Below are positions 15,193-60,676 of a stretch of DNA of 64,000 bases, in pieces. The position numbers and the translations under genes were made by a program. Source of the stretch: Candidatus Nomurabacteria bacterium (GTDB lineage: Bacteria > Patescibacteriota > Minisyncoccia > Phycocordibacterales > UBA9973); the NCBI GenBank assembly GCA_016199805.1, contig JACQGC010000005.1, positions 6,019-70,018 on the forward strand, read 5' to 3'. Within the stretch, counting starts at the first letter, position 1. Every line of letters starts with the position of its first letter. A model generated the notes under the pieces. That model was given only the letters and a program-made list of their open reading frames with translations, was not told the origin of the DNA and made no database searches.

Positions 15193-15255
15193 ATCTAGAT
15201 TATAAAACAGTTATTTTTTTAATGCAATGTGTATAAACAAAACTTAAGGAAAAAC

Positions 15256-15302: not shown

Positions 15303-16352
15303 TTATTCACTAACCCACAAATAAAAATAATTTTTTATTTTTATAGAAAATTTGTAAGCATCTGTGTGTGAAAGCACTCCTAGGTATGATGCTAAGGTCG
15401 CTTTGATTTTGTCTTTGCCAACTTCCCCTCTTCGGTATGCTTCAATTTTATCTTCAAATTTTCTGATAATCCTCTTTTTCGTTCTTTTACGAATGAGAGT
15501 ATGGGTAGAAAAGATAATATTCCCCAAAAAATCTATGCCCTTGATATAACTTAATATCTCAACTTTTTCCGGATGTAAATGTAAAAATAAAGAATCTCGT
15601 AAAAATATATTTACGGAGTCTAAAATATGGAGTAAATAATCTCTATCTCTTGAAACAATCACAAAATCGTCAGTGTAGCGCGCATAATAACGAACTTTGA
15701 GTTTGTGTTTAATAAATTGGTCAAATTCATTCATATAGATATTCGCAAAAATCTGCGAGGTGAGATTGCCTATAGGCACACCCTTTCTTCCCAATAAATC
15801 TGACGCAGAACTTGTATAACTCTCGATTATGTTTTCCAGAAGCCAAATTATATTCGGATCTTTAATCTTCTTATTTAAGATTGCCAACAAAATATCGTGG
15901 TCAATTGAATCAAAAAACTTACGCACGTCACACTTGAGCACATAGCATGTCTTTGTATTGTTTCTGCTTTCTTTTCGCAACATACCTCGCAAAGTTTCGA
16001 TCCCCTTATGAGTCCCCTTGCCTATTCGGCAAGAAAACGAGTTGGAAATAAATGTTGGTTCAAATATTGGGTTGAGTATATTAAAAATTGCATGGTGGAG
16101 GACTCGGTCTCTGACGGTGGCTTTATGTATATGCCTCAATTTCGGATCTGATATATAAAATCCTTCGTACTCGCCGTGTTTATAGCTTTTGTTTTTTAAA
16201 TCTCGAGATAGTTTGAAAATATTACTCTCAAGCTCACTCTCAAACATCAATACATCTATTTTCGATCCCTTTCCGTGTTTAAATTCTTTCCACGCTAAAA
16301 ACAAAGCCTCGGGTTGAACAATCTTATTAAATAAATCTTTGTGAATAATCAT
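15303..16352 (-). CDS. Reverse transcriptase of the diversity-generating retroelement (DGR) type.
   Basis: RT motifs are present: the LFxxIxxxxAxxAWKEFKHGKGSK N-terminus, the IGNLTSQIFANIYMNEFDQF motif 4 with the DGR-specific SQ, and the YARYTDDFVI YxDD box. It is about 350 aa and has no maturase or endonuclease domain. The start was chosen at the internal Met (16352). Confidence 0.85.
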   Translation of the reverse strand: MIIHKDLFNKIVQPEALFLAWKEFKHGKGSKIDVLMFESELESNIFKLSRDLKNKSYKHGEYEGFYISDPKLRHIHKATVRDRVLHHAIFNILNPIFEPTFISNSFSCRIGKGTHKGIETLRGMLRKESRNNTKTCYVLKCDVRKFFDSIDHDILLAILNKKIKDPNIIWLLENIIESYTSSASDLLGRKGVPIGNLTSQIFANIYMNEFDQFIKHKLKVRYYARYTDDFVIVSRDRDYLLHILDSVNIFLRDSLFLHLHPEKVEILSYIKGIDFLGNIIFSTHTLIRKRTKKRIIRKFEDKIEAYRRGEVGKDKIKATLASYLGVLSHTDAYKFSIKIKNYFYLWVSE

Positions 16353-16706
16353 ATGAATCAAAATGATGTGCCAGTACTTAATAAATCGTATGAATTGTAT
16401 AAGTTGTTTCACGAATATCGCAAGGTTGTTCCAAAGCAAGACAGATTTACCATATATGAACGAAGTGAGCATGTAATGCTGGGGATTATAGAACTTCTGC
16501 TTGAAGCGAGTTACGGCGGCAAAGAAAGAAAGCTAGTCACCCTAGAAAAAGCCAGCGTCAAACTCAATGTGCTCCGATTCCTGATTCGCATAATGAAAGA
16601 AACAAAAACATTTGATATGAAAAAATACATTTCACTGGAACTACTTGTTGATGAAATCGGACGAATGATTGGAGGATGGATACGTTCGCTCAATCTCAAT
16701 AAATAG
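16353..16706 (+). CDS. avd: Avd-like accessory variability determinant, a four-helix-bundle protein of the 23S rRNA IVS protein family.
   Basis: It is about 118 aa. The helical pattern YELYKLFHEY...PKQDRFTIYERSEHVMLGIIE...LEKASVKLNVLRFLIRIMKE...ISLELLVDEIGRMIGGWIRSL is typical of the Avd/IVS family. It is divergent from the RT gene, and the two start codons are back-to-back (CAT|ATG). Confidence 0.7.
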   Translation: MNQNDVPVLNKSYELYKLFHEYRKVVPKQDRFTIYERSEHVMLGIIELLLEASYGGKERKLVTLEKASVKLNVLRFLIRIMKETKTFDMKKYISLELLVDEIGRMIGGWIRSLNLNK

Positions 16707-16710
16707 CTTC

Positions 16711-16750
16711 ACACAAAAGGTATCCAAAAAGGATACCTTTTGTGTTTTAC
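16711..16750 (+). terminator. Strong hairpin (15-bp stem, AAAAA loop) followed by TTTT. It is the likely avd terminator. It also lies in the spacer between TR and RT on the other strand.
   Basis: ACACAAAAGGTATCC-AAAAA-GGATACCTTTTGTGT is followed by TTTAC, directly after the avd stop codon. Confidence 0.55.
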
Positions 16751-16762
16751 AAAAAGAGACTT

Positions 16763-16891
16763 CGGGAGGAAGCCGGACGCCGAGCCAAAGTTGTCGTTGG
16801 CATTGTCGACCGTGTTCGTGTCAAACTTGAGCTTGCCGTCGTTCCAGTTGAGGTACGGAGCGTGATCGAAGCGAACAGAGGAATCCGGATT
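16763..16891 (-). repeat. DGR template repeat (TR).
   Basis: This 129-bp segment is near-identical to 17300..17428. The two differ at 18 positions, and all 18 are adenines in this copy (read on the minus strand). In the target frame this copy contains multiple AAC/AAT codons. Confidence 0.85.
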
Positions 16892-17186
16892 CTGCCTTTA
16901 TCCATCTATGGCACCGGAACTTGAAAGCTTTGCAAAGCAAAATGCAATCTTGCTCCTGAATTTAACTTCACAACACTTATTTTTTAAGTAAGTTTGTGTT
17001 GGGTAAAGACAAGCAGTATCTCTTCATAGTAACGCTCTTTTTGCAACCGTAGTCGCAAAAATTCTGGCTAGTTTCTTTGTGAAAAGAAAGAGTTCGGCGA
17101 TGGCAATCCATAAACTGCCATACATGAGCTTAGACTCAAGGTTAAGTATATTAAAAGTAAATTTAAAAATCAATATGAAATGAAAT

Positions 17187-17225
17187 CAGGGCTACCCACA
17201 TTGTGTTGTGGATAACCCTGATATT
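17187..17225 (-). terminator. Hairpin about 70 nt downstream of the DGR target gene stop. It has T-rich flanks on both sides. It is a candidate terminator or homing-associated structure.
   Basis: CAGGGCTACCCACATTGTGTTGTGGATAACCCTG is an imperfect palindrome. It has a T-run on the plus side and a T-rich tail on the minus side. Confidence 0.35.
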
Positions 17226-17290
17226 TTTTGCCGCGAACTCAAGAATCAAATGAAAGAGTTCAAAAAATTCAAGTATTCGAAGCGATAGAA

Positions 17291-18184
17291 TCACTTCTGC
17301 GGGAGGAAGCCGGACGCCGAGCCAAAGTAGCCGAAGGCACCGCCGACCGCGCCCGTGCCAAACTTGAGCATGCCGTCGAGCCAGTGGAGGTACGGAGCGA
17401 GACCGAAGCGAACAGAGGAAGCCGGATTATCAAACTCTTCGCCGGGCAAGTCCATGTGAAGTTGCTCCCAGCGAACGAAACGCTCCGGATGAGTGAGTAT
17501 GATAGCACCTCCAATAACGGAAGTGGCGCCGAACTCATTGCGTACGAAGACTTCGTGTGCGCGCCGAGTGGAACGTCCGCGGTGACGCATTCCGAGCTGG
17601 AGAGCCGCGACGAGGATATCGCCATTGCCCTGTTGTTCGGAGAGCGTTTCGATTGCCATTGCCGTCCGCGAATGAACGCGTAAACGGTCCATTTGACTCG
17701 CGCGGTAATTGTAGAACGAGCGCGACGCGGCAATTTTCGAGAGAACGGCGCCAGTTGCAATGGCGCGCGGAAAAGCGAACCAACCCACAAACGGCAACGC
17801 GTCTTCCGGAACGAACGACTTCAGCTCTGGTCGGATTTGTGCATACGCCAGCGCAGAGTCTGGATTGAGGTTAAAAACCTCCGCCAGGTATAAAATCTGG
17901 TCACAGATGGACTTCGGACCCTTGTACTCTGGCGGGTACGTGTAGGAGGATGCGACCTCCTCGCTTGCGTACTGGTTCGGGCTGCCGTATTTACGCACGA
18001 GATCTCGGACGAAGTCGCGAACGTCGTTCATGGCTCCCGTGCCGTTGTCGATGAACCGAACGCCACCCTCGTACGAGTCGAGATATTTTTCGACCACGAG
18101 AGGAACCTGCGCTTGAATCATTCCTGTAATATGCTCACGCTGTTCCGGCGACGCCGGGGCGGCTTCTGACAACATCGTTTTCAT
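17291..18184 (-). CDS. DGR target protein (297 aa). It has no signal peptide. The variable repeat encodes its C-terminal about 43 residues, a probable C-type-lectin / FGE-like variable fold.
   Basis: An AAGGAG RBS sits 6 nt before the ATG. The gene is GC-rich (about 58%), in contrast to the genome. The C-terminus ...NPASSVRFGLAPYLHWLDGMLKFGTGAVGGAFGYFGSASGFLPQK is encoded by the VR. The stop codon lies 7 nt past the VR. Confidence 0.75.
   Translation of the reverse strand: MKTMLSEAAPASPEQREHITGMIQAQVPLVVEKYLDSYEGGVRFIDNGTGAMNDVRDFVRDLVRKYGSPNQYASEEVASSYTYPPEYKGPKSICDQILYLAEVFNLNPDSALAYAQIRPELKSFVPEDALPFVGWFAFPRAIATGAVLSKIAASRSFYNYRASQMDRLRVHSRTAMAIETLSEQQGNGDILVAALQLGMRHRGRSTRRAHEVFVRNEFGATSVIGGAIILTHPERFVRWEQLHMDLPGEEFDNPASSVRFGLAPYLHWLDGMLKFGTGAVGGAFGYFGSASGFLPQK
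17300..17428 (-). repeat. DGR variable repeat (VR) at the 3' end of the target gene.
   Basis: It is the 129-bp cognate of the TR. All 18 mismatches correspond to A in the TR. The last 27 nt (minus sense) contain no adenine and are identical between the two copies, making this an IMH-like GC-rich end. Confidence 0.85.
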
Positions 18185-19098: not shown

Positions 19099-19128
19099 GA
19101 ATTTTATTTATAACTTTATAACTAATAA

Positions 19129-33238: not shown

Positions 33239-33511
33239 TTATACATCCATGGCTTTTCTCATTTCCTTCATGTCAGTATAGAATTTCAACTTACCGCTTT
33301 TTAATTCTTTTTCTCCATTTCTAATAGACCTTCTCAATCTAGCATTTGGTATTTCGGGAGTGGTAAATTCTATTCTTTTTTCGGCTATGATTTTTCTGAC
33401 CGCATGATTTAAGGCAATAGAAAGAGTCAGCCCCATTTCGTCTAGGGTTTTTATAAGTTCTTTCTTTACCTTTGGGTCCGTATTAAAATTTATTACTGCA
33501 TTGTTACTCAT
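33239..33511 (-). CDS. RelB/DinJ-family antitoxin.
   Basis: INFNTDPKVKKELIKTLDEMGLTLSIALNHAVRKII matches the DinJ ribbon-helix pattern. The start was placed at the internal Met. There is a 4-nt gap to the toxin gene. Confidence 0.55.
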   Translation of the reverse strand: MSNNAVINFNTDPKVKKELIKTLDEMGLTLSIALNHAVRKIIAEKRIEFTTPEIPNARLRRSIRNGEKELKSGKLKFYTDMKEMRKAMDV

Positions 33512-33551
33512 GTATACAGTATATAGTATTGTATATATAAAAGTCAAGTCT

Positions 33552-34758: not shown

Positions 34759-35067
34759 TTATTTCTTTGCTTTCAACTCTTTTCTCTTCATTGTCGGCTT
34801 TTTCTTCGGCAATACGTTTATTTTCTTGCCTTCAATTATTTTATCGTGCACTAAAAAGTTGTGCATAGTGTCCGAACATTGCGCGCCCTGGCTCATCCAA
34901 TATTTTATCCTGTCGGCGAGTAAATTTTTCTCTCCGGCCTTGGGATTGTAGGTACCCAATATTTCTAAAAATCTTCCGCTCTTGGTGCTATTCTTGGAAT
35001 CGGTCAAAACCGCCCGAAATGACGGGTCGTTCTTTCTGCCTATTCTCTGAAGTCTTATTTTTAACAT
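34759..35067 (-). CDS. rpsP: 30S ribosomal protein S16.
   Basis: The MLKIRLQRIGRKNDPSFRAVLTDS N-terminus is canonical for S16. Confidence 0.92.
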   Translation of the reverse strand: MLKIRLQRIGRKNDPSFRAVLTDSKNSTKSGRFLEILGTYNPKAGEKNLLADRIKYWMSQGAQCSDTMHNFLVHDKIIEGKKINVLPKKKPTMKRKELKAKK

Positions 35068-35140
35068 CCCAGTACTAAAATTTTATTAATAATGCTTATC
35101 GACATGTCCCCGTAATCAAAAATTTAGTACGGGACAGGTA
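35065..35140 (-). repeat. Copy A of a conserved ~76-nt leader element. It abuts the rpsP start codon. It contains an internal hairpin and a long-range inverted repeat.
   Basis: It shares two identical blocks (21 nt and 33 nt) with 47077..47153. Both copies begin at the ATG of the downstream gene. Confidence 0.6.
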
Positions 35141-35239
35141 AGTGTAGCTTAACATAAATTATTAAAAAGGCAAACTTGCCCGCCTGTGCGCGGGTAAAAC
35201 TAGAAAAGGCGCCGGTGCCTTTCTAGACCCCTGACGCCC

Positions 35240-35593
35240 TCAGATTTTCCCCTCTTTCTCCACCCGCCGAATCACGACGATCGGCGGCTTCTTGAAATTC
35301 TCCCAGAACTTCGTCCTCTCTTCGTCGCACTGCTTGGTGAGACGCTCAAGACGCTTCTCACTAAGACCGAGGACATTGTCTTTCACCCAACAGGAGGAAA
35401 TCGGCACAACTGCCGACTCGGCAATCACCTGTACCGGTGCCGTCTGCGCCTTGGCCCGCGGCAACAGCCACATAGACAGCGCAACGAAAAATGCAATAGC
35501 TAGCAACGGAGCCCAAATCGCCCTAACTACTGCCATGAACCGAGCTACACCAAACAGTTGCATTGAAGCATTTACGACACTCTTTTGTGACAC
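35240..35593 (-). CDS. Hypothetical small membrane protein encoded by a GC-rich (about 55%) segment.
   Basis: The ORF has a TM helix. Its composition departs clearly from the neighbouring rpsP and rnr genes. Confidence 0.4.
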   Translation of the reverse strand: MSQKSVVNASMQLFGVARFMAVVRAIWAPLLAIAFFVALSMWLLPRAKAQTAPVQVIAESAVVPISSCWVKDNVLGLSEKRLERLTKQCDEERTKFWENFKKPPIVVIRRVEKEGKI

Positions 35594-41202: not shown

Positions 41203-41898
41203 TTAGTCTAGCCAATTTTTCATTTTTAAAGCGGCGAGGGCTGCCGACTGTTCGGCTTCTTGTTTTGATTTTCCTTTGCCTTCAGCCATCAGCTCGGGTC
41301 CGAAATAAATACCGACGGTGAAATGTTTATCATGATCAGGGCCCGTTTGGTTTAAAACCTTATAGGCCGGAGTCACCGAGACAAATTCCTGCGCTTTTTC
41401 CTGCACCAGGGACTTGGCGTCGCGCCAGAGTTTTTTATTCACGATTTCTTCCGTCTGAGGCAAGAGAGTTTTGGTGATAAATTTATTGGTCACTTCATAG
41501 CCGGCATCCAGATACATCGCGCCGACCAATGCCTCATAGGTATTGGCTAAAATATACTGCCGGGCCTTACCATTGTCTTTGGCTTCACCTTTGGATAAAA
41601 GCAAATAGTCATTCATACCGATATCGCTTGCGATTTCGGAAATAATAATCGCGTTCACCAAGGCCGAACGGAGCGCGGTCAATTCCCCTTCCGCATAGTG
41701 CGGATACTTGCGGTATAGAAAGTCGGTCACGATAAGCTCCAGCACGGCATCGCCCAAAAACTCCAAGCGTTCGTTGTGCGATAAAGTTGCCCCCCCATTC
41801 TCATTGATATAGGAACGGTGCGTGAAAGCCTGCTTCAGTAAATTTTTGTCTTCAAAGACCACTTTTATTTTTTTCTCAAAATCTGAAAATTTTACCAT
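41203..41898 (-). CDS. rnc: Ribonuclease III.
   Basis: The NERLEFLGDAVLELIV signature box is present. A dsRBD follows at the C-terminus. Confidence 0.9.
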   Translation of the reverse strand: MVKFSDFEKKIKVVFEDKNLLKQAFTHRSYINENGGATLSHNERLEFLGDAVLELIVTDFLYRKYPHYAEGELTALRSALVNAIIISEIASDIGMNDYLLLSKGEAKDNGKARQYILANTYEALVGAMYLDAGYEVTNKFITKTLLPQTEEIVNKKLWRDAKSLVQEKAQEFVSVTPAYKVLNQTGPDHDKHFTVGIYFGPELMAEGKGKSKQEAEQSAALAALKMKNWLD

Positions 41899-41923
41899 AT
41901 ATTACTTTACAACTTTATGAACT
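41899..41923 (-). promoter_or_regulatory. Intergenic copy of the AAAGTTATAAAGT motif, immediately upstream of rnc.
   Basis: On the minus strand it reads AAAGTTATAAAGTTCATAAAGTTGTAAAGTAATAT-ATG. Confidence 0.35.
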
Positions 41924-42844
41924 TTATAACTTTTTACTACTCAATATCTCAATTGCCTTACTGATTAATGGAATAATATCATTATAAATACGAAGTCCGG
42001 GGATAGCGGAAATTTCAAACCAGCGGGCATTGTCCAGGCCAGTGGATTTTTCCAGGACTAGCTCTTTATATTCGCTTTTCGCTAAAAAGTAAACAACTTT
42101 TTTCAAAATCTTCCCTTTTACCGGGTGAGAAGCCACATACTCGTTCTCGCCCAGTTTTTCTTCAATGAAAATATCCAGCCCGATTTCCTGCTTAATTTCT
42201 CTTTTTGTCGCTTCTTCTTCACTATCCTCCCCGTCAATTCCGCCTTTGGAAATAGTCCAATATCCAAAAACATCGTGCACTAGGGCAAATACTATTTTAT
42301 CTTCGTTCCTGGCATAGACCAATGCCCCGCCCTTTTTTTCCACCGGCAGTTTGGTGATATCCAGAGCCTCTTCGGGTTTTTTCTTCTTACTGATTTGTTC
42401 TTTGCCCGGCTCGCCTATCTCTTTATAGACCGCGCCCAAGACACCGTTTACGAATTTGCCGGAATTTTCCCCACCAAAAGTTTTCGCCAATTCTATGGCT
42501 TCATTGATGGCTACCTTTGGAGGCACTTCCTTGCGGTCGCCAAAGAGAAGTTCGGTCAAGCCGATTCTTAGAATATTTCTGTCTATGATGGAGATTTTGT
42601 CTAGCGGCCAGTCCGGAGCGGCTTTTTCAATAATCTCGTCAATTACTTTATGTTTCTTCAGAACCTGTTCGATGAGAGAAAATACGAAAGCATCGTCCTC
42701 AAAACCGGGAGCAAATTCTTTTAGGTTTCTTTTCAGACTTTCTTTGATATTAGATTCGCTGTTTTCTTTATTATTAGGCAAGGTGAAATCCCACTCAAAA
42801 AGCGTCTGCAGCACTATTGATCTGGAAAGGTGCCTGTTTGCCAT
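41924..42844 (-). CDS. nusB: Fusion of an N-terminal NusB-like antitermination domain with a C-terminal NUDIX hydrolase domain.
   Basis: The N-terminal 150 aa are NusB-like (SRSIVLQTLFEWDF...AINEAIELAKTFGGENSGKFVNGVLG). The C-terminus carries a Nudix box, GGIDGEDSEEEATKREIKQEIG. Confidence 0.65.
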   Translation of the reverse strand: MANRHLSRSIVLQTLFEWDFTLPNNKENSESNIKESLKRNLKEFAPGFEDDAFVFSLIEQVLKKHKVIDEIIEKAAPDWPLDKISIIDRNILRIGLTELLFGDRKEVPPKVAINEAIELAKTFGGENSGKFVNGVLGAVYKEIGEPGKEQISKKKKPEEALDITKLPVEKKGGALVYARNEDKIVFALVHDVFGYWTISKGGIDGEDSEEEATKREIKQEIGLDIFIEEKLGENEYVASHPVKGKILKKVVYFLAKSEYKELVLEKSTGLDNARWFEISAIPGLRIYNDIIPLISKAIEILSSKKL

Positions 42845-42935
42845 GATTAGTTATAAAGTTATCAAGTTCATAAAGTTAAAAGAAAATTCAAAACCTTCCT
42901 AACTTTACAAACTTTATAACTTTCTACTTTATAAA
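42845..42935 (-). promoter_or_regulatory. Intergenic region carrying about three copies of the AAAGTTATAAAGT-like motif, upstream of the nusB-nudix gene.
   Basis: On the minus strand it reads TTTATAAAGTAGAAAGTTATAAAGTTTGTAAAGTTAGGAAGG...AACTTTATGAACTTGATAACTTTATAAC. Confidence 0.35.
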
Positions 42936-43160: not shown

Positions 43161-43221
43161 AGTGTACCCATCTTAGCATATTAAAGTTGAAATGCAAAAT
43201 AAAATGTGATATTATAAAAAT

Positions 43222-44979: not shown

Positions 44980-47153
<2,174 letters not shown>

Positions 47154-47162
47154 TATACCTAT

Positions 47163-47191
47163 ATTATAGCAAAATTTACCTGACTTGCCAA
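47163..47191 (-). promoter_or_regulatory. Candidate gyrB promoter (TTGGCA-N17-TATAAT). It would start transcription at the upstream edge of the leader element.
   Basis: On the minus strand, TATAAT sits at 47163-47168 and TTGGCA at 47186-47191. It lies inside the 3' end of pheT. Confidence 0.4.
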
Positions 47192-49023
47192 TCAGCGTTC
47201 TCCTTGATTTTATTGGTTATTTTAGTCATAATATCGTTCACTTCTGTGTCAGTCAAAGTGCGGTCAAAAGACTGAAAAACCAATCTGAAAGCGTAAGAAA
47301 TTTTTCCATCTTTTTTGAATTCATCAAATAATTCCGGACCGCGGATTACCATATCCCCTGCGTTTTCCTTTATAACTTTATAAACTTTTTCACTTTCAAC
47401 TGTATCTGGCACCCACACGGCAATATCTCGGGCGATGAATGGGAAGAGGGACCAGGGCTTGAATTTATTATTCCCCTCTTGAGGGGTGGCGCTTGTGCCG
47501 GGGTGGATAATTTTTCCACCTCCCCCTAAAGGGTACTCCTCAAGAGGAGAATCAATGCAAAATTCATCCAGTTTCATCTCTTTTATTTCTTTCTTGTTTG
47601 CATAAGCCACATGCATCTCTTCTTTGTCTTTTTTGAAGATTGTTCCAATTTCAAAAATTTTTATCTCGTTCATTCCCAAAAGTGGAGCATTGGCTTGGTT
47701 GAGTTTTAGACTTTCTTTTAATCCATCAGTTAAATTTGTGCGCAGAAACTTTTTGTCCGACGCAGAAGCCAGGACAGACACCTCCCCCATACTCCTAAAG
47801 CTACTATTCATGACTTCAGAATACCCGTCATTCAGTAATTTATTTCTAGTCCAGAGTATTTTAGTATATGTTTGGTTTTGTTTCGGCTGGAAATTTATTT
47901 TGGAAATTTTAACTTTCACCTTATCATAACCGAGAATCCTGCCGATTTCTTCCGCCATATCTTCCTCAATTACCAAGTCTAGGCGCATCGTCGGTACGGT
48001 AATTTCAAATTTTCCGGCATTTTCTGTATATTCAAAATTATACCTCTTTAAGATATCTTTTATTTCTTCCACAGAAACTTCTAAACCCAAAATCTTTGAA
48101 ATTTTATCGGTTGAAAAAGATAATTTTCTTTCTTCTTGTTTTTGAGGGTAAACATCTACCACCTCTTCAAAAATTGCTTCCGGGCACATCTCGGCGATAA
48201 GTGCGGAAAACTCAACCATTGCCTCCCCGCAAAGCTCGGGCGATAAATCGTTCTCGAAACGCTTTTTGGCATCCGTAATTATATTCACGGCTTGAGCTGT
48301 CTTTCGCACAGAAGTCGGGTCAAAATTGGCAACTTCTAAAATTATGTCTTTAGTATTATTATCTACTTCCGCAATTTTCCCTCCCTTCACTCCGGCGATG
48401 GCCAAGGCGTTTTTCGTATCAGCTATTACCATATTTGAATTTTTAAGCTTTATTTCTTTGTTGTCCAAAGTGGTTAAACTTTCGCCTCCTGTGGCCTCAC
48501 GCACGAAAATTACATTTTCCATTTTATCCAAATCAAAACAATGCGTGGGCTGGCCATCGTCAAACATCACGATGTTGGCGGCGTCCACGATATTGTTGAT
48601 ACTTCTCTGCCCCATGGATTCAAGGTGTTTTACCATCCATTCTGGGCTTGGGCCAACTTTTACGCCCCGAATTATCCTGCCCATATACCTGCGGCATTTT
48701 TCTGTTTCAATTTTTATTTGAAGTTTTGTTGGTTTTACTTCGGGAATTTTATATTTCGGCGCCGGGTCAACAAATTTAATATTTAGAAGTGAAGCGAGTT
48801 CGCGAGCCACACCCAGGTGGGACAACAAATCATGCGCGCGGTTTGGTAAAACTTTTATATCAAAAACATAATCACCACCCCCTGCCCCCTCGGGTGAAAG
48901 GAGGGGAGGAAGTCTCTCCATTGATTCCATTTCACAAAGGTGATAGTTGAAAATATCCGTGAGTTTGTCTGCGTAGGGAACTTCCGGTATATACCGTTTG
49001 AGCCAGTTGTAAGAAATTTTCAT
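47176..49023 (-). CDS. pheT: Phenylalanine--tRNA ligase beta subunit (short form).
   Basis: The MKISYNWLKRYIP N-terminus is canonical. B3/4 and B5 regions are present. It is followed by pheS. Confidence 0.85.
   Translation of the reverse strand: MKISYNWLKRYIPEVPYADKLTDIFNYHLCEMESMERLPPLLSPEGAGGGDYVFDIKVLPNRAHDLLSHLGVARELASLLNIKFVDPAPKYKIPEVKPTKLQIKIETEKCRRYMGRIIRGVKVGPSPEWMVKHLESMGQRSINNIVDAANIVMFDDGQPTHCFDLDKMENVIFVREATGGESLTTLDNKEIKLKNSNMVIADTKNALAIAGVKGGKIAEVDNNTKDIILEVANFDPTSVRKTAQAVNIITDAKKRFENDLSPELCGEAMVEFSALIAEMCPEAIFEEVVDVYPQKQEERKLSFSTDKISKILGLEVSVEEIKDILKRYNFEYTENAGKFEITVPTMRLDLVIEEDMAEEIGRILGYDKVKVKISKINFQPKQNQTYTKILWTRNKLLNDGYSEVMNSSFRSMGEVSVLASASDKKFLRTNLTDGLKESLKLNQANAPLLGMNEIKIFEIGTIFKKDKEEMHVAYANKKEIKEMKLDEFCIDSPLEEYPLGGGGKIIHPGTSATPQEGNNKFKPWSLFPFIARDIAVWVPDTVESEKVYKVIKENAGDMVIRGPELFDEFKKDGKISYAFRLVFQSFDRTLTDTEVNDIMTKITNKIKENADWQVR
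48871..48915 (-). repeat. GC-rich palindromic element inserted in-frame in pheT. It encodes PPLLSPEGAGGGD.
   Basis: AATCACCACCCCCTGCCCCCTC...GAAAGGAGGGG shares 22 identical nt plus the GAAAGGAGGGG arm with the ligA copy at 56048. Confidence 0.6.
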
Positions 49024-53845: not shown

Positions 53846-53880
53846 ATCCGTATTCTACCTCTTTTTTTACTTTCTGTCTT

Positions 53881-54457: not shown

Positions 54458-56599
<2,142 letters not shown>

Positions 56600-58552: not shown

Positions 58553-58590
58553 CTCTTTATGACTTTATAAACTTTCTACTTTATAACTAA
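58553..58590 (-). promoter_or_regulatory. Intergenic AAAGTTATAAAGT-motif copy upstream of a pseudopilin gene.
   Basis: On the minus strand it reads AGTTATAAAGTAGAAAGTTTATAAAGTCATAAAG, about 5 nt before the ATG. Confidence 0.35.
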
Positions 58591-59166: not shown

Positions 59167-59184
59167 TTCTTTATAACTTTATAA
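59167..59184 (-). promoter_or_regulatory. Intergenic AAAGTTATAAAG-motif copy upstream of a pseudopilin gene.
   Basis: On the minus strand it reads ATTAGTTATAAAGTTATAAAGAA-ATG. Confidence 0.3.
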
Positions 59185-60640: not shown

Positions 60641-60676
60641 AAGCTTATTATAACATATATCATCTTTACCCTAAAG

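Follow-up and report, generated by a model that had tools for sequence, protein, structure and literature searches.

Introduction

Small dispersed palindromic repeats are well known. Among them, the MITEs of the Correia and ERIC/IRU type are co-transcribed with their neighbours, form hairpins and have effects on mRNA processing or stability, and Correia elements duplicate a TA and lie at variable distance from genes; to our knowledge, no Correia or ERIC element has been reported at zero distance from a start codon or pairing with an AUG. REP/RAYT and IS200/IS605 systems insert 3' of a fixed short target without duplicating it, by means of a Y1 HUH transposase. In unmasking coupling (MS2 coat-replicase) and in the CaMV 35S shunt, a stop codon stands a few nucleotides before a stem and the next start codon is sequestered or lies just after it.

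Dispersed repeats of ~120-180 bp placed just upstream of many unrelated genes have been described as REP2 in Neisseria and as IR-A and IR-B in Borrelia (PMC3184786). MIRU (Supply 1997) are intra-operon repeats of 40-100 bp that are oriented with transcription, show filled and empty sites and are flanked by 4-nt direct repeats, and their small ORFs overlap the neighbouring genes at their ends, such that translational coupling is preserved (PMC3184786). In the literature and in Rfam, we found no description of a repeat family that directly adjoins start codons, supplies one base of the ATG and pairs with it.

We analyzed a window of 64,000 nucleotides from Candidatus Nomurabacteria (contig JACQGC010000005.1), in which two copies of one element adjoin the start codons of rpsP and gyrB. 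In our best reading this family is specific to Candidatus Nomurabacteria/Paceibacteria, and the element is probably a non-autonomous, MITE-like palindromic insertion at start codons, whose transcript would fold into a hairpin that closes on the AUG. As to translation, there are no Shine-Dalgarno sites in the window, an ATG often follows a -10 box at 6-7 nt, giving starts of leaderless type, and the anti-SD motif is reported absent in a Parcubacteria subgroup (PMC9297842).

The rpsP and gyrB copies

A sequence-only reading of the window had described a structured leader of two conserved blocks shared by rpsP and gyrB, and direct inspection bears out its anatomy: positions 35065-35085 are identical to 47077-47097 (CATCCCAGTACTAAAATTTTA) and positions 35108-35140 to 47121-47153 (CCCCGTAATCAAAAATTTAGTACGGGACAGGTA), with a divergent core of 22-23 nt between the blocks in each copy. 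Each block occurs exactly twice in the window, even with up to 3 mismatches permitted, and 100 dinucleotide-preserving shuffles yielded 0 block matches. Both copies are oriented with the gene and stop exactly at its ATG (Table 1). At gyrB, 9 nt separate the end of the -10 box from TACCT; since the element starts only a few nucleotides past a good promoter, it would form essentially the whole 5' UTR, as had been proposed.

Table 1. Coordinates of the element copies, their host genes and two empty sites in the window
Feature	Position	Strand	Remarks
Ribosomal protein S16 (rpsP) ORF	34759-35067	-	followed by KH protein and TrmD
rpsP (S16) ATG	35065..35067	-	adjoins the element
rpsP copy, 3' arm	35066..35084	-	AAAATTTTAGTACTGGGAT; takes in A and T of the start codon
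rpsP copy, class-1 loop	35085..35115	-	31 nt
rpsP copy, loop segment	~35106-35114		UACGGGGA(C); local pairing with the 5' arm gives the alternative hairpin
rpsP copy, 5' arm	35116..35135	-	GTCCCGTACTAAATTTTTGA; pairs with the 3' arm
rpsP copy, 5' flank	35136..35140	-	TACCT (family consensus T-A-C-Y-T)
thrS start codon	43222..43224	+	empty, leaderless-type (TGATATTAT-AAAAAT-ATG)
GyrB ORF	44980-47079	-	
gyrB ATG	47077..47079	-	adjoins the element
gyrB copy, 3' arm	47078..47096	-	AAAATTTTAGTACTGGGAT
gyrB copy, class-1 loop	47097..47128	-	32 nt; local-hairpin partner UACGGGGG
gyrB copy, 5' arm	47129..47148	-	GTCCCGTACTAAATTTTTGA
gyrB copy, 5' flank	47149..47153	-	TACCT
gyrB promoter	47163..47191	-	TTGGCA-N17-TATAAT with TG upstream; scores 11/12
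pheT start codon	49021..49023	-	empty here; orthologous pheT in locus L115 filled
Ends of the canonical element			TCCCGTAC / GTACTGGGA

Anatomy and distribution of the family

In mRNA order the element consists of TACYT, the 5' arm GTCCCGTACTAAATTTTTGA, a loop, the 3' arm AAAATTTTAGTACTGGG and the ATG, and as a DNA unit it reads ACYTG-TCCCGTAC...GTAC-T-GGG(A). It is AT-rich and present as one copy per site, with a length of 70-76 bp for the short form (unit ~73 bp) and of 105-112 bp for the long one (~108 bp); loop lengths are bimodal, with 29-33 nt in class 1 (99 copies) and 64-70 nt in class 2. The terminal inverted repeats, (G)TCCCGTACTAAATTTT and AAAATTTTAGTAC-T-GGGA(T), are imperfect and 17-19 nt long, and the left end carries an additional ACYTG without a partner in the right arm. 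Over 118 copies among the matches listed, the five positions of the 5' flank hold 0.8-1.9 bits each, with background values outside. The 3' arm is exact in 90 of the 119 copies among the matches listed, an invariance of the arms that is in part an artefact, as the exact arm sequences were the search queries; its variants are chiefly C to U changes (giving G.U) or changes of the bulge base. Class-2 loops carry a 10-codon ORF that ends within the 3' arm, and most copies have no loop ORF. One subfamily bears an 11-nt mini-hairpin inside the 5' arm, with a GGC/GCC to GAC/GTC change of its own.

The exact 5'-arm 20-mer was found at no fewer than 118 loci (at least 72 genomes of Candidatus Nomurabacteria/Paceibacterota, as MAG species), and a second scan located the 3' arm at 120 or more metagenome loci; among the matches listed, the number of copies per genome reaches at least 7. 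The loci stem from groundwater sets, among them Hainich H41/H43/H51 and Rifle. No copy of the element was found in viral contigs of IMG/VR (five 16-mer matches there lacked the 5' arm), and a phage origin was rejected. Among the matches listed, the ATG directly adjoins 114 of 119 copies and a GTG or TTG none of the 119 (p = 1e-9 against the start-codon usage of the window), while the ~110 downstream proteins fall into 79 unrelated blast clusters.

The view of the sequence-only reading, that of a conserved leader of particular housekeeping operons, is not supported: at least 79 unrelated gene families in at least 72 genomes are involved, the copies are mostly intercistronic and not behind promoters, orthologous sites alternate between filled and precisely empty from species to species, and a sister family shows target-site duplications (see below). 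The same reading had held that copies at random positions would make the element a dispersed repeat or MITE. Its behaviour is indeed MITE-like, yet its position is nearly always at a gene start; the choice between a MITE and a gene-start element is a false dichotomy.

The start of the element lies no more than 10 nt past an upstream stop codon in 72 of 114 copies (63%) among the matches listed, and the remaining copies are mostly found 5-9 nt downstream of a -10 box. A gap of at most 4 nt between stop codon and element was seen at 50 of 69 filled sites as opposed to 8 of 24 empty ones (p = 0.001). An intercistronic position was seen for 34 of 36 copies with class-2 loops, which hold the small ORF, and for 53 of 96 copies of class 1 (p = 8e-6).

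Even the rplX/rplE/rpsN junctions of a ribosomal-protein operon carry the element. An integron attC site was considered and rejected, given that the neighbours are conserved housekeeping operons (these same rplX-rplE-rpsN junctions) with no cassettes.

Filled and empty sites

Dozens of orthologous pairs with 75-85% flank identity are precise filled/empty pairs, and the precisely empty sites include gyrB, pheT, thrS, serS, relA, folA, copA and the rplX/rplE/rpsN junctions. At the empty gyrB of locus L074, which reads TGCTATAAT-ATCTGTATAC-ATGGCT, the same promoter stands directly before the ATG; the rpsP orthologue in locus L223 is also filled. The filled thrS of L074 and the empty thrS of the window can be aligned across the junction at 85% identity. 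No filled/empty pair with more than 90% flank identity was found that would point to recent movement, and at any single site the difference may reflect loss instead of gain. Species can differ in the size or loop class of the element that they carry at one and the same gene, and loop similarity is 0.693 within genomes and likewise 0.693 between genomes. Purifying selection on "orthologous" copies, suggested by conserved arms beside diverged flanks, is a weakened reading, because one gene often carries different classes and copies of the same class are already 85-95% alike.

At the flanks of the canonical family there is no clear target duplication, only an ambiguity of one A or else a TG on either side; empty sites have nothing that corresponds to the conserved ACYTG of the left end. 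A sister family, S (TCCCGTTAG...CTAACGGGA, as TCCCGTTAGRR...CTAACGGGA), of 49-123 bp has perfect terminal inverted repeats and is flanked by 3-5-bp direct repeats (TGAA, TGGA, TGAG) in 11 of 16 copies (p ~1e-11). Its orthologous empty sites contain ATGAA once only, and its terminal A restores the ATG. Subfamily B (TACTTG-TCCCGTTAGAAATT...) connects families A and S. For the canonical family, we infer transposition from these sequence comparisons. Neither an autonomous copy nor a transposase with matching ends was found in ~1.7 Mb of locus sequence, arm pairs 160-5000 bp apart that could have bounded an autonomous element being merely neighbouring copies, and a Pfam scan of 39 ORFs in the window detected no transposase domain.

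Pairing of the arms

Both folds claimed in the sequence-only reading exist and are mutually exclusive. The long-range stem between the arms (P1) is the minimum-free-energy fold, at -16.6 to -20.1 kcal/mol, and within it the A and U of the AUG have pairing probabilities of 0.99 and 0.93; with the local hairpin imposed as a constraint, the value is -8.5 to -13.7 kcal/mol. The predicted core hairpin comprises 13 bp (5 bp, a bulged U or C, 8 bp), and its base pairs the UGU of the 5' end with the AUG; in one variant GUCCC...GGGAU-G has become GCCCC...GGGGU-G, which turns the AUG into GUG. The window copies alone give weak folding z-scores (-0.6 to -1.9). Across 99 copies, P1 is 99.6% paired and the alternative hairpin 81.6%, the latter with R/Y variation opposite U and G.

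Comparison of subfamilies A, B, C and S shows fully compensated upper stems (GUACUAAA/UUUAGUAC, GUUAGAAAUU/AAUUUCUAAU, GUUAAAAAUUU/AAAUUUUUAAU and GUACGAAGU/ACUUUGUAC), and the mini-hairpin insert is compensated as well; the inverted repeats of mobile DNA would give the same result. Subfamily B was out of register in the MAFFT alignment. The canonical family itself lacks two-sided covariation, in part because each scan kept one arm fixed. With the 3' arm fixed, the changes in the core of the 5' arm amount to 16 transitions that keep the pair, 3 that break it and no transversions. That the core stem has no transversions, when they make up 14 of 19 changes in the distal AU part, is a stronger signal than the wobble bias, for which pair-keeping changes make up 84% of transitions where 69% would be expected by chance. 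Such wobble-biased substitutions are only suggestive of selection at the RNA level. The one-sided changes are mostly GC-to-AT transitions, as mutation bias alone would favour, and as the inverted repeats of transposons pair by construction, the hairpin could be a by-product. A conserved Y(-2) might have paired with the opening base of codon 2, but the two showed no association. In the comparison with Rfam, likewise proposed beforehand, the window had no match at the gathering score, and a permissive search of positions 34950-35300 returned chance-level matches only (E up to 10).

Proposed mechanism and alternative explanations

If the element is an insertion at start codons, its last A would form the ATG together with the TG of the host, and one transcript would span the element and the downstream gene, with the element making up the complete 5' UTR or, between cistrons, the complete spacer. 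The hairpin would loop the insertion out, so that only a few nucleotides would still separate the AUG from the original transcription start or upstream stop codon, but the AUG would be closed. With no Shine-Dalgarno sites and many leaderless-type starts in the window, translation of the downstream gene would then need the base of the stem to be opened. The stem could plausibly be opened by a ribosome that terminates 5-8 nt before it, by the alternative local hairpin in copies with class-1 loops, or by translation of the 10-codon ORF in class-2 loops, which would end inside the 3' arm. All of these effects on translation are what we infer from sequence and folding.

A more far-reaching version, which we offer tentatively as a possibility, is that of start-codon-seeking mobile DNA that co-evolved with SD-independent translation, the hairpin acting as a bacterial shunt or reinitiation device. 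Integration would take place between the A and the TG of the start codon, and the terminal A of the element would rebuild the ATG; an "anti-start-codon" end, with UGU pairing to AUG or GUG, would loop the element out of the mRNA. Two kinds of ribosome could then still reach the AUG, one that terminates 5-8 nt before the element and, where the mRNA used to be leaderless, one bound at the 5' end. The host, a lineage without an anti-SD, may have domesticated the element as a general coupler or gate of translation.

The strict position and orientation at the AUG would also suit a host cis-regulatory RNA leader, that is, a regulon switch with two folds, read by a protein, an sRNA or the ribosome and spread by ordinary duplication. 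The pairing of the alternative hairpin is kept through A or G opposite U and C or U opposite G, in copy L210 the pair G11-C29 has become A-U, the stem base RUCCCG...GGGAUG is common to all subfamilies while the upper stems vary, and the 3' arm has an apparent likeness to the CsrA SELEX consensus RUACARGGAUGU. We nevertheless regard such a leader as quite unlikely, as the downstream genes are functionally unrelated (79 clusters), sites differ among close relatives, a single gene can carry different classes, family S has target duplications, Rfam offers no match, and the loops are too short and too variable for a ligand pocket; a low-power tblastn search of the collected locus sequence for a CsrA homologue found none. 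A 70-nt element could not have originated separately at hundreds of sites; some copy-and-paste mechanism must have been at work. The zero distance to the AUG would be accounted for if the hairpin were an RNA processing or "punctuation" signal, cut at or near the GGG/AUG boundary, e.g., by RNase III, such that internal cistrons or transcripts with a leader become leaderless or near-leaderless mRNAs, a form apparently preferred by this organism. This fits the leaderless-type empty sites with their -10 box 6-7 nt before the ATG, the stem of ~18 bp approaches an RNase III substrate in size, and RNase III is encoded in the window (41203-41898). Such predicted cleavage would, however, leave the conserved alternative hairpin, the loop ORF and their association with context unexplained; the sequence specificity of RNase III is slight, and a cut between GGG and AUG would have to be made within the helix at 3 bp from the end, for which no measuring rule is known. 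We consider it unlikely as an explanation of the element, and a processing function could sit on top of a mobile origin.

A portable promoter and 5' UTR module, similar to Neisseria REP2, would start transcription inside the loop and use the 3' arm as leader, the 5' arm pairing solely in read-through transcripts. Class-1 loops do carry YATAAW at a fixed position, with a full extended -10 box (TGNTATAAT) in the loops of L049, L061, L088, L102, L040 and L111, and TTGATT lies within the 5' arm. TTGATT and the -10-like hexamer are not spaced as sigma-70 requires, though, class-2 loops and long loops do without the hexamer, a good promoter stands just upstream of the element in many copies, and most copies are intercistronic, which makes this module improbable. 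A scan for internal sigma-70 promoters found none in either window copy. The inverted, sequence-conserved arms might finally be read as half-sites of a DNA-level operator on which a dimeric protein brackets a core promoter, but the distance between the arms falls into two classes ~35 bp apart, most copies lie away from promoters, the zero distance to the ATG and the constant orientation would go unexplained, and an 11-nt hairpin insert is tolerated inside one arm. With spacings of 55 and 90 bp out of helical phase and intercistronic positions, a DNA-looping operator is rejected, and we hold any operator to be highly improbable.

Should the mechanism proposed for the insertion at start codons be true, mobile DNA would have colonized the gaps of a few nucleotides in an extremely compact genome without silencing essential genes, and it would provide a handle on translation start and coupling in candidate-phyla-radiation bacteria that do without Shine-Dalgarno pairing. 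The element can serve as a clade marker and is a source of start-codon mis-annotation in Patescibacteria MAGs.

Comparison with known systems

With REP2, IR-A and IR-B the element shares the supply of a 5' UTR and ATG and internal stem-loops (PMC3184786). REP2 has no terminal inverted repeats and brings its own promoter and ribosome-binding site, whereas the ends of our element pair with each other and with the AUG, most of its copies are intercistronic, and its sister family S has target duplications. Of the ATG only the A comes from the repeat, there is no ribosome-binding site, as the host uses none, and the window copies have no internal promoter of the sigma-70 type. The class-2 loop ORF that ends in the 3' arm is comparable to the small ORFs of MIRU, but MIRU are GC-rich, often tandem and overlap both stop and start codons, while the element is AT-rich, single and anchored at the start codon only.

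Terminal inverted repeats and the presence of short and long classes recall the Correia (CREE/NEMIS) and ERIC/IRU elements (PMC3184786). As is typical of MITEs, the element is short (below ~300 bp), non-coding and multi-copy, has terminal inverted repeats and shows filled and empty sites. On the opposite strand it always follows CAT, as would fit insertion 3' of a fixed target in the logic of REP/RAYT or IS200/IS605. The structures of MS2 and CaMV are single and gene-specific, whereas the element provides such a predicted geometry at multiple sites per genome.

A Repeat Family Abutting Start Codons

The copies before rpsP and gyrB share two blocks that are identical on reading of the sequence, separated in each by a divergent core of 22–23 nt, and both elements end directly at the ATG. 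This arrangement had been described in the sequence-only reading, as had a gyrB promoter that was recovered by our promoter scan (Table). Each block occurs exactly twice in the 64-kb window with three mismatches allowed, and not at all in shuffled sequence. The suggested comparison with Rfam identified no known leader motif, with no match in the window at gathering score and only chance-level hits around the rpsP copy at E up to 10.

A scan of one genome per species for the exact 20-mer of the distal arm returned at least 118 matching stretches, those listed all lying in Candidatus Nomurabacteria/Paceibacterota MAGs (72 genomes, up to 7 listed per genome), and a mirror scan of metagenomes for the proximal arm plus ATG added at least 120 further loci; the viral contigs searched contained none. 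Copy numbers from both scans are lower bounds, and because each scan fixed one arm, the invariance of the arms is overstated. Among family members in unselected flanks, the exact canonical form is the minority. The sequence-only reading had proposed such a search with a tally of the genes that follow, and the tally gave about 110 downstream proteins in 79 blast clusters. Going by N-terminal sequences rather than Pfam, these look like unrelated housekeeping genes, among them ribosomal proteins, Obg, LepA, GatA, FtsA, HolA, RibE, SecY, RodA, ClpB, tRNA synthetases, DnaB and AtpC.

In mRNA sense the element reads T-A-C-Y-T, GTCCCGTACTAAATTTTTGA, loop, AAAATTTTAGTACTGGG, ATG. The 5 nt before the 5′ arm are conserved at 0.8–1.9 bits, and the sequence farther upstream is merely AT-rich. 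Loop length is sharply bimodal, at 29–33 nt (99 copies) and 64–70 nt (20 copies), and the metagenome set has the same pattern. Directly 3′ of the element stands ATG in 114 of 119 copies, ATT or ATA in five and GTG or TTG in none (p = 1e-9 against start-codon usage in the window), a count that is unbiased at this end since the copies had been collected by their 5′ arm. Proteins of one secreted or membrane family have an ORF that begins within the long loop and continues through the 3′ arm, the arm coding for ..KILVLG.. in the signal peptide; these copies end in GGGATT instead of GGGATG.

Structure of the Element RNA

The two arms are predicted to pair in a long-range stem, P1, whose base consists of U.G, G.U and U-A pairs taking in the G, U and A of the AUG; above it follow CCC/GGG, a bulged U, GUACUAAA/UUUAGUAC, a U.U mismatch and AU pairs. 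P1 is paired in 99.6% of cells over 99 copies and folds at −16.6 to −20.1 kcal/mol, with pairing values of 0.99 and 0.93 for the A and U of the AUG. A covariance model scored 79–103 bits on the sense strand vs. 28–40 bits on the reverse. In loop class 1, which includes both window copies, a local hairpin is possible between the loop sequence UACGGGRY and the 5′ arm (81.6% of cells paired over 99 short-form copies), its variation placing A or G opposite U and C or U opposite G. Both alternatives put forward in the sequence-only reading, P1 extending to the AUG and the local hairpin, are predicted for the window copies. Class 2 lacks the local hairpin; here a 10-codon ORF (consensus MTTINNNLKF) begins with an ATG at a constant place in the loop and terminates in the 3′ arm at a TAG 7 nt ahead of the main ATG. 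A complete extended −10 box, TGNTATAAT, is present in some loops outside these two classes.

The covariation check across copies, also proposed earlier, revealed no two-sided changes within the canonical family, in part since one arm was kept constant in each scan. In copies collected by the 5′ arm, the 3′ arm differs mostly at the bulge (17 copies) or by C-to-U changes that yield G.U (10 copies), and about six changes are disruptive. In copies collected by the 3′ arm, the 13-bp core of the 5′ arm has 16 transitions that keep the pair, three changes that break it and no transversions, and variation is free in the distal AU part. Subfamilies have entirely different upper stems, each fully compensated, and in one variant the U-A pair at the stem base has become C-G, turning AUG into GUG. 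In a seven-member subfamily the 5′ arm is interrupted by a GC-rich mini-hairpin of 11 nt, ACGGCTTCGCC, which shows a GGC/GCC to GAC/GTC change of its own. These substitution patterns fit a selected RNA hairpin, and selection at the RNA level is likely rather than proven, because inverted repeats in mobile DNA combined with a GC-to-AT mutation bias yield much of the same pattern.

Genomic Context and Probable Repeated Insertion

In 72 of 114 copies the end of a long ORF on the same strand lies no more than 10 nt from TACYT, and these copies therefore occupy the entire intercistronic space; the stop of that ORF is TAA in 87%, usually 0–4 nt before ACYT. Most other copies have a −10 box, often TGNTANAAT, 5–9 nt upstream, so that the transcript would start at about TACYT. 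Such a start is predicted for gyrB, with its promoter just upstream, and the rpsP copy appears to be arranged likewise, with TGTTAAGCT 5 nt upstream, kept as TGTTAGACT in a filled ortholog (locus L223). No Shine-Dalgarno sequence precedes any of the 49 window genes, consistent with a report that a Parcubacteria subgroup has lost the anti-SD motif (PMC9297842), and many have a −10 box 6–7 nt before the ATG, the signature of leaderless mRNAs, which implies that these are widespread.

When element-bearing genes were compared with orthologs among the other collected loci, many orthologous sites were precisely empty. The gyrB site is filled in this window and empty in L074 (TGCTATAAT-ATCTGTATAC-ATGGCT), pheT is filled in L115 and empty here, and thrS is filled in L074 and empty here at 85% flank identity; upstream of rplX, rplE and rpsN the filled junction comes from a different species in each case, and serS, relA, folA and copA behave likewise. 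Altogether 37 junction-spanning filled/empty alignments were obtained at 75–85% identity. Empty sites are leaderless-type starts or short stop-to-ATG gaps. The inserted unit is ACYTG...GGG, equivalently CYTG...GGGA, and the start codon at a filled site consists of the element's last A and the host TG. One gene often bears different size or loop classes in different species, and loop similarity is the same within and between genomes (0.693 in both); we therefore argue for repeated independent insertion and not inheritance. A search for arm pairs around an ORF in about 1.7 Mb of collected loci revealed no autonomous copy or transposase, and no transposase domain was present among 39 window ORFs scanned with Pfam.

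Related Hairpin Families

A generic search for TCCC...GGGAT detected 39 further hairpins, among which 15 different upper stems occur, all fully complementary; shuffled sequence gave none. Family S, one group of these, has perfect terminal repeats TCCCGTTAGRR...YYCTAACGGGA (right end CTAACGGGA) and a length of 49–123 bp, and direct repeats of 3–5 bp (TGAA, TGGA, TGAG, TGA) flank 11 of 16 copies (p about 1e-11). In most of these the left repeat is preceded by A, reading as an original ATGAA, and the right repeat follows the terminal A of the element, rebuilding ATGAA; at orthologous empty sites ATGAA occurs once. Such a pattern is a classical target-site duplication, one that takes in the TG of the start codon and leaves an ATG on either side of the element. 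In L074 a family S element stands at the start of the nusB ortholog. Subfamily B (TACTTG-TCCCGTTAGAAATT...AATTTCTAAT-GGGATG) has its left flank in common with the window's family and its arm in common with family S, and we infer from these sequences that the three probably form one superfamily of start-codon-associated MITE-like elements.

Other Repeats in the Window

A minus-strand region looks like a diversity-generating retroelement: a pair of 132-nt repeats, in which every difference falls at an adenine of the first copy, fits a template and a variable repeat, the latter at the 3′ end of an ORF. Tandem (G)TTATAAAG octamers form a second dispersed motif (13 matches vs. 1.6 expected); most lie directly upstream of minus-strand ATGs, including those of rnc, nusB and a pilin-like gene, the motif also precedes genes in other loci, and the arrays may be promoters or operators. 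A GC-rich palindromic 37-mer, CCCCTCCTTTC..GAGGGGGCAGGGGGTGGTGAT, lies in frame in two unrelated essential genes, encoding PLLSPEGAGGGD in one and a 12-residue string in the other, and looks like an in-frame RPE-type insertion as in Rickettsia. The DNA ligase ORF also contains a perfect inverted repeat of 25 nt with a 42-nt spacer; it is in frame, adds about 31 residues close to the zinc-finger region and may likewise be a palindromic insertion within a gene.

Table. Location of the features discussed.
Feature	Position or loci	Strand	Remark
Element blocks before rpsP	35065-35085, 35108-35140
Element blocks before gyrB	47077-47097, 47121-47153
S16 (rpsP)	34759-35067	-	followed by KhpA-type KH protein, TrmD
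RelB-type antitoxin ORF	33239-33547	-	directly downstream of trmD in the rpsP-KH-trmD cluster
GyrB	44980-47079	-
gyrB promoter	47191-47163	-	TTGGCA-N17-TATAAT; upstream TG
PheT	47176-49023	-	upstream of GyrB
-10 box close to ATG (examples)	15193-15210, 43205-43221, 53846-53862, 60641-60657
Retroelement-like region	15303-18184	-
Reverse transcriptase ORF	15303-16472	-	Pfam RVT_1
132-nt repeat pair	16760-16891, 17297-17428	-
ORF with putative variable repeat at 3′ end	17291-18184
TTATAAAG octamers	19106-19121, 41905-41937, 42851-42927, 47368-47385, 58555-58570, 59169-59184
RNase III gene	41203-41898	-	preceded by TTATAAAG repeats
NusB-NUDIX fusion	41924-42844	-	preceded by TTATAAAG repeats
Palindromic 37-mer	48870-48906, 56053-56089		pheT, ligA
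Inverted repeat in ligA	55196-55287
Loop-start secreted/membrane ORFs	L053:2602-2712, L069:1047-1157, L086:697-805, L060:2714-2824
Mini-hairpin subfamily	L181, L189, L199, L206, L208, L226, L242
Family S	L161, L216, L062, L192, L221, L222, L047, L215, L010, L031, L077		and others

Possible Mode of Action

The data establish a multi-copy palindromic element with filled/empty polymorphism that abuts start codons in a host lacking Shine-Dalgarno sites, and a duplication of the target in the sister family S. We propose that the element inserts at a start codon, rebuilding that codon, and that its RNA would loop itself out, keeping the AUG about 5–9 nt from the former transcription start or upstream stop, yet locked in the base of the stem. 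With a stop codon 5–8 nt from the first pair, the entry channel of a terminating ribosome would lie at the stem base, and such a ribosome could free the three weak pairs holding the AUG. In promoter-proximal copies the local hairpin would serve as an alternative open state, and in class-2 copies the 3′ arm would be unwound by ribosomes translating the loop ORF.

The distribution of variants bears on this proposal. Class-2 copies are intercistronic in 34 of 36 cases vs. 53 of 96 for class 1 (p = 8e-6; replicated in two independent sets), and in 50 of 69 filled sites no more than 4 nt separate the stop codon from the element, whereas the native stop-to-ATG gap is that short in 8 of 24 orthologous empty sites (p = 0.001). 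Because of this bias and the shorter gaps, we suggest that the survival of a given variant at a given site depends on how it affects translation of the gene downstream. The observations are also compatible with a purely selfish element, its hairpin doing no more than neutralizing the harm of insertion. Cleavage of the hairpin by RNase III, leaving a near-leaderless mRNA, has to be taken as a serious rival, or as an additional layer, because the window encodes this enzyme.

Comparison With Known Systems

Correia and ERIC elements combine MITE anatomy with co-transcription, as the element here appears to, but lack the start-codon position, and we found no description in the literature of this family or of start-codon-abutting MITEs. 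By the descriptions in PMC3184786, the closest systems are the Neisseria REP2 and Borrelia IR repeats and the MIRUs. REP2 and IR repeats lie immediately upstream of genes and supply the ATG but, unlike the element, have no terminal inverted repeats and carry a promoter and ribosome-binding site (PMC3184786), while MIRUs are operon-internal, with 4-nt direct repeats and small ORFs bridging stop and start codons (PMC3184786).
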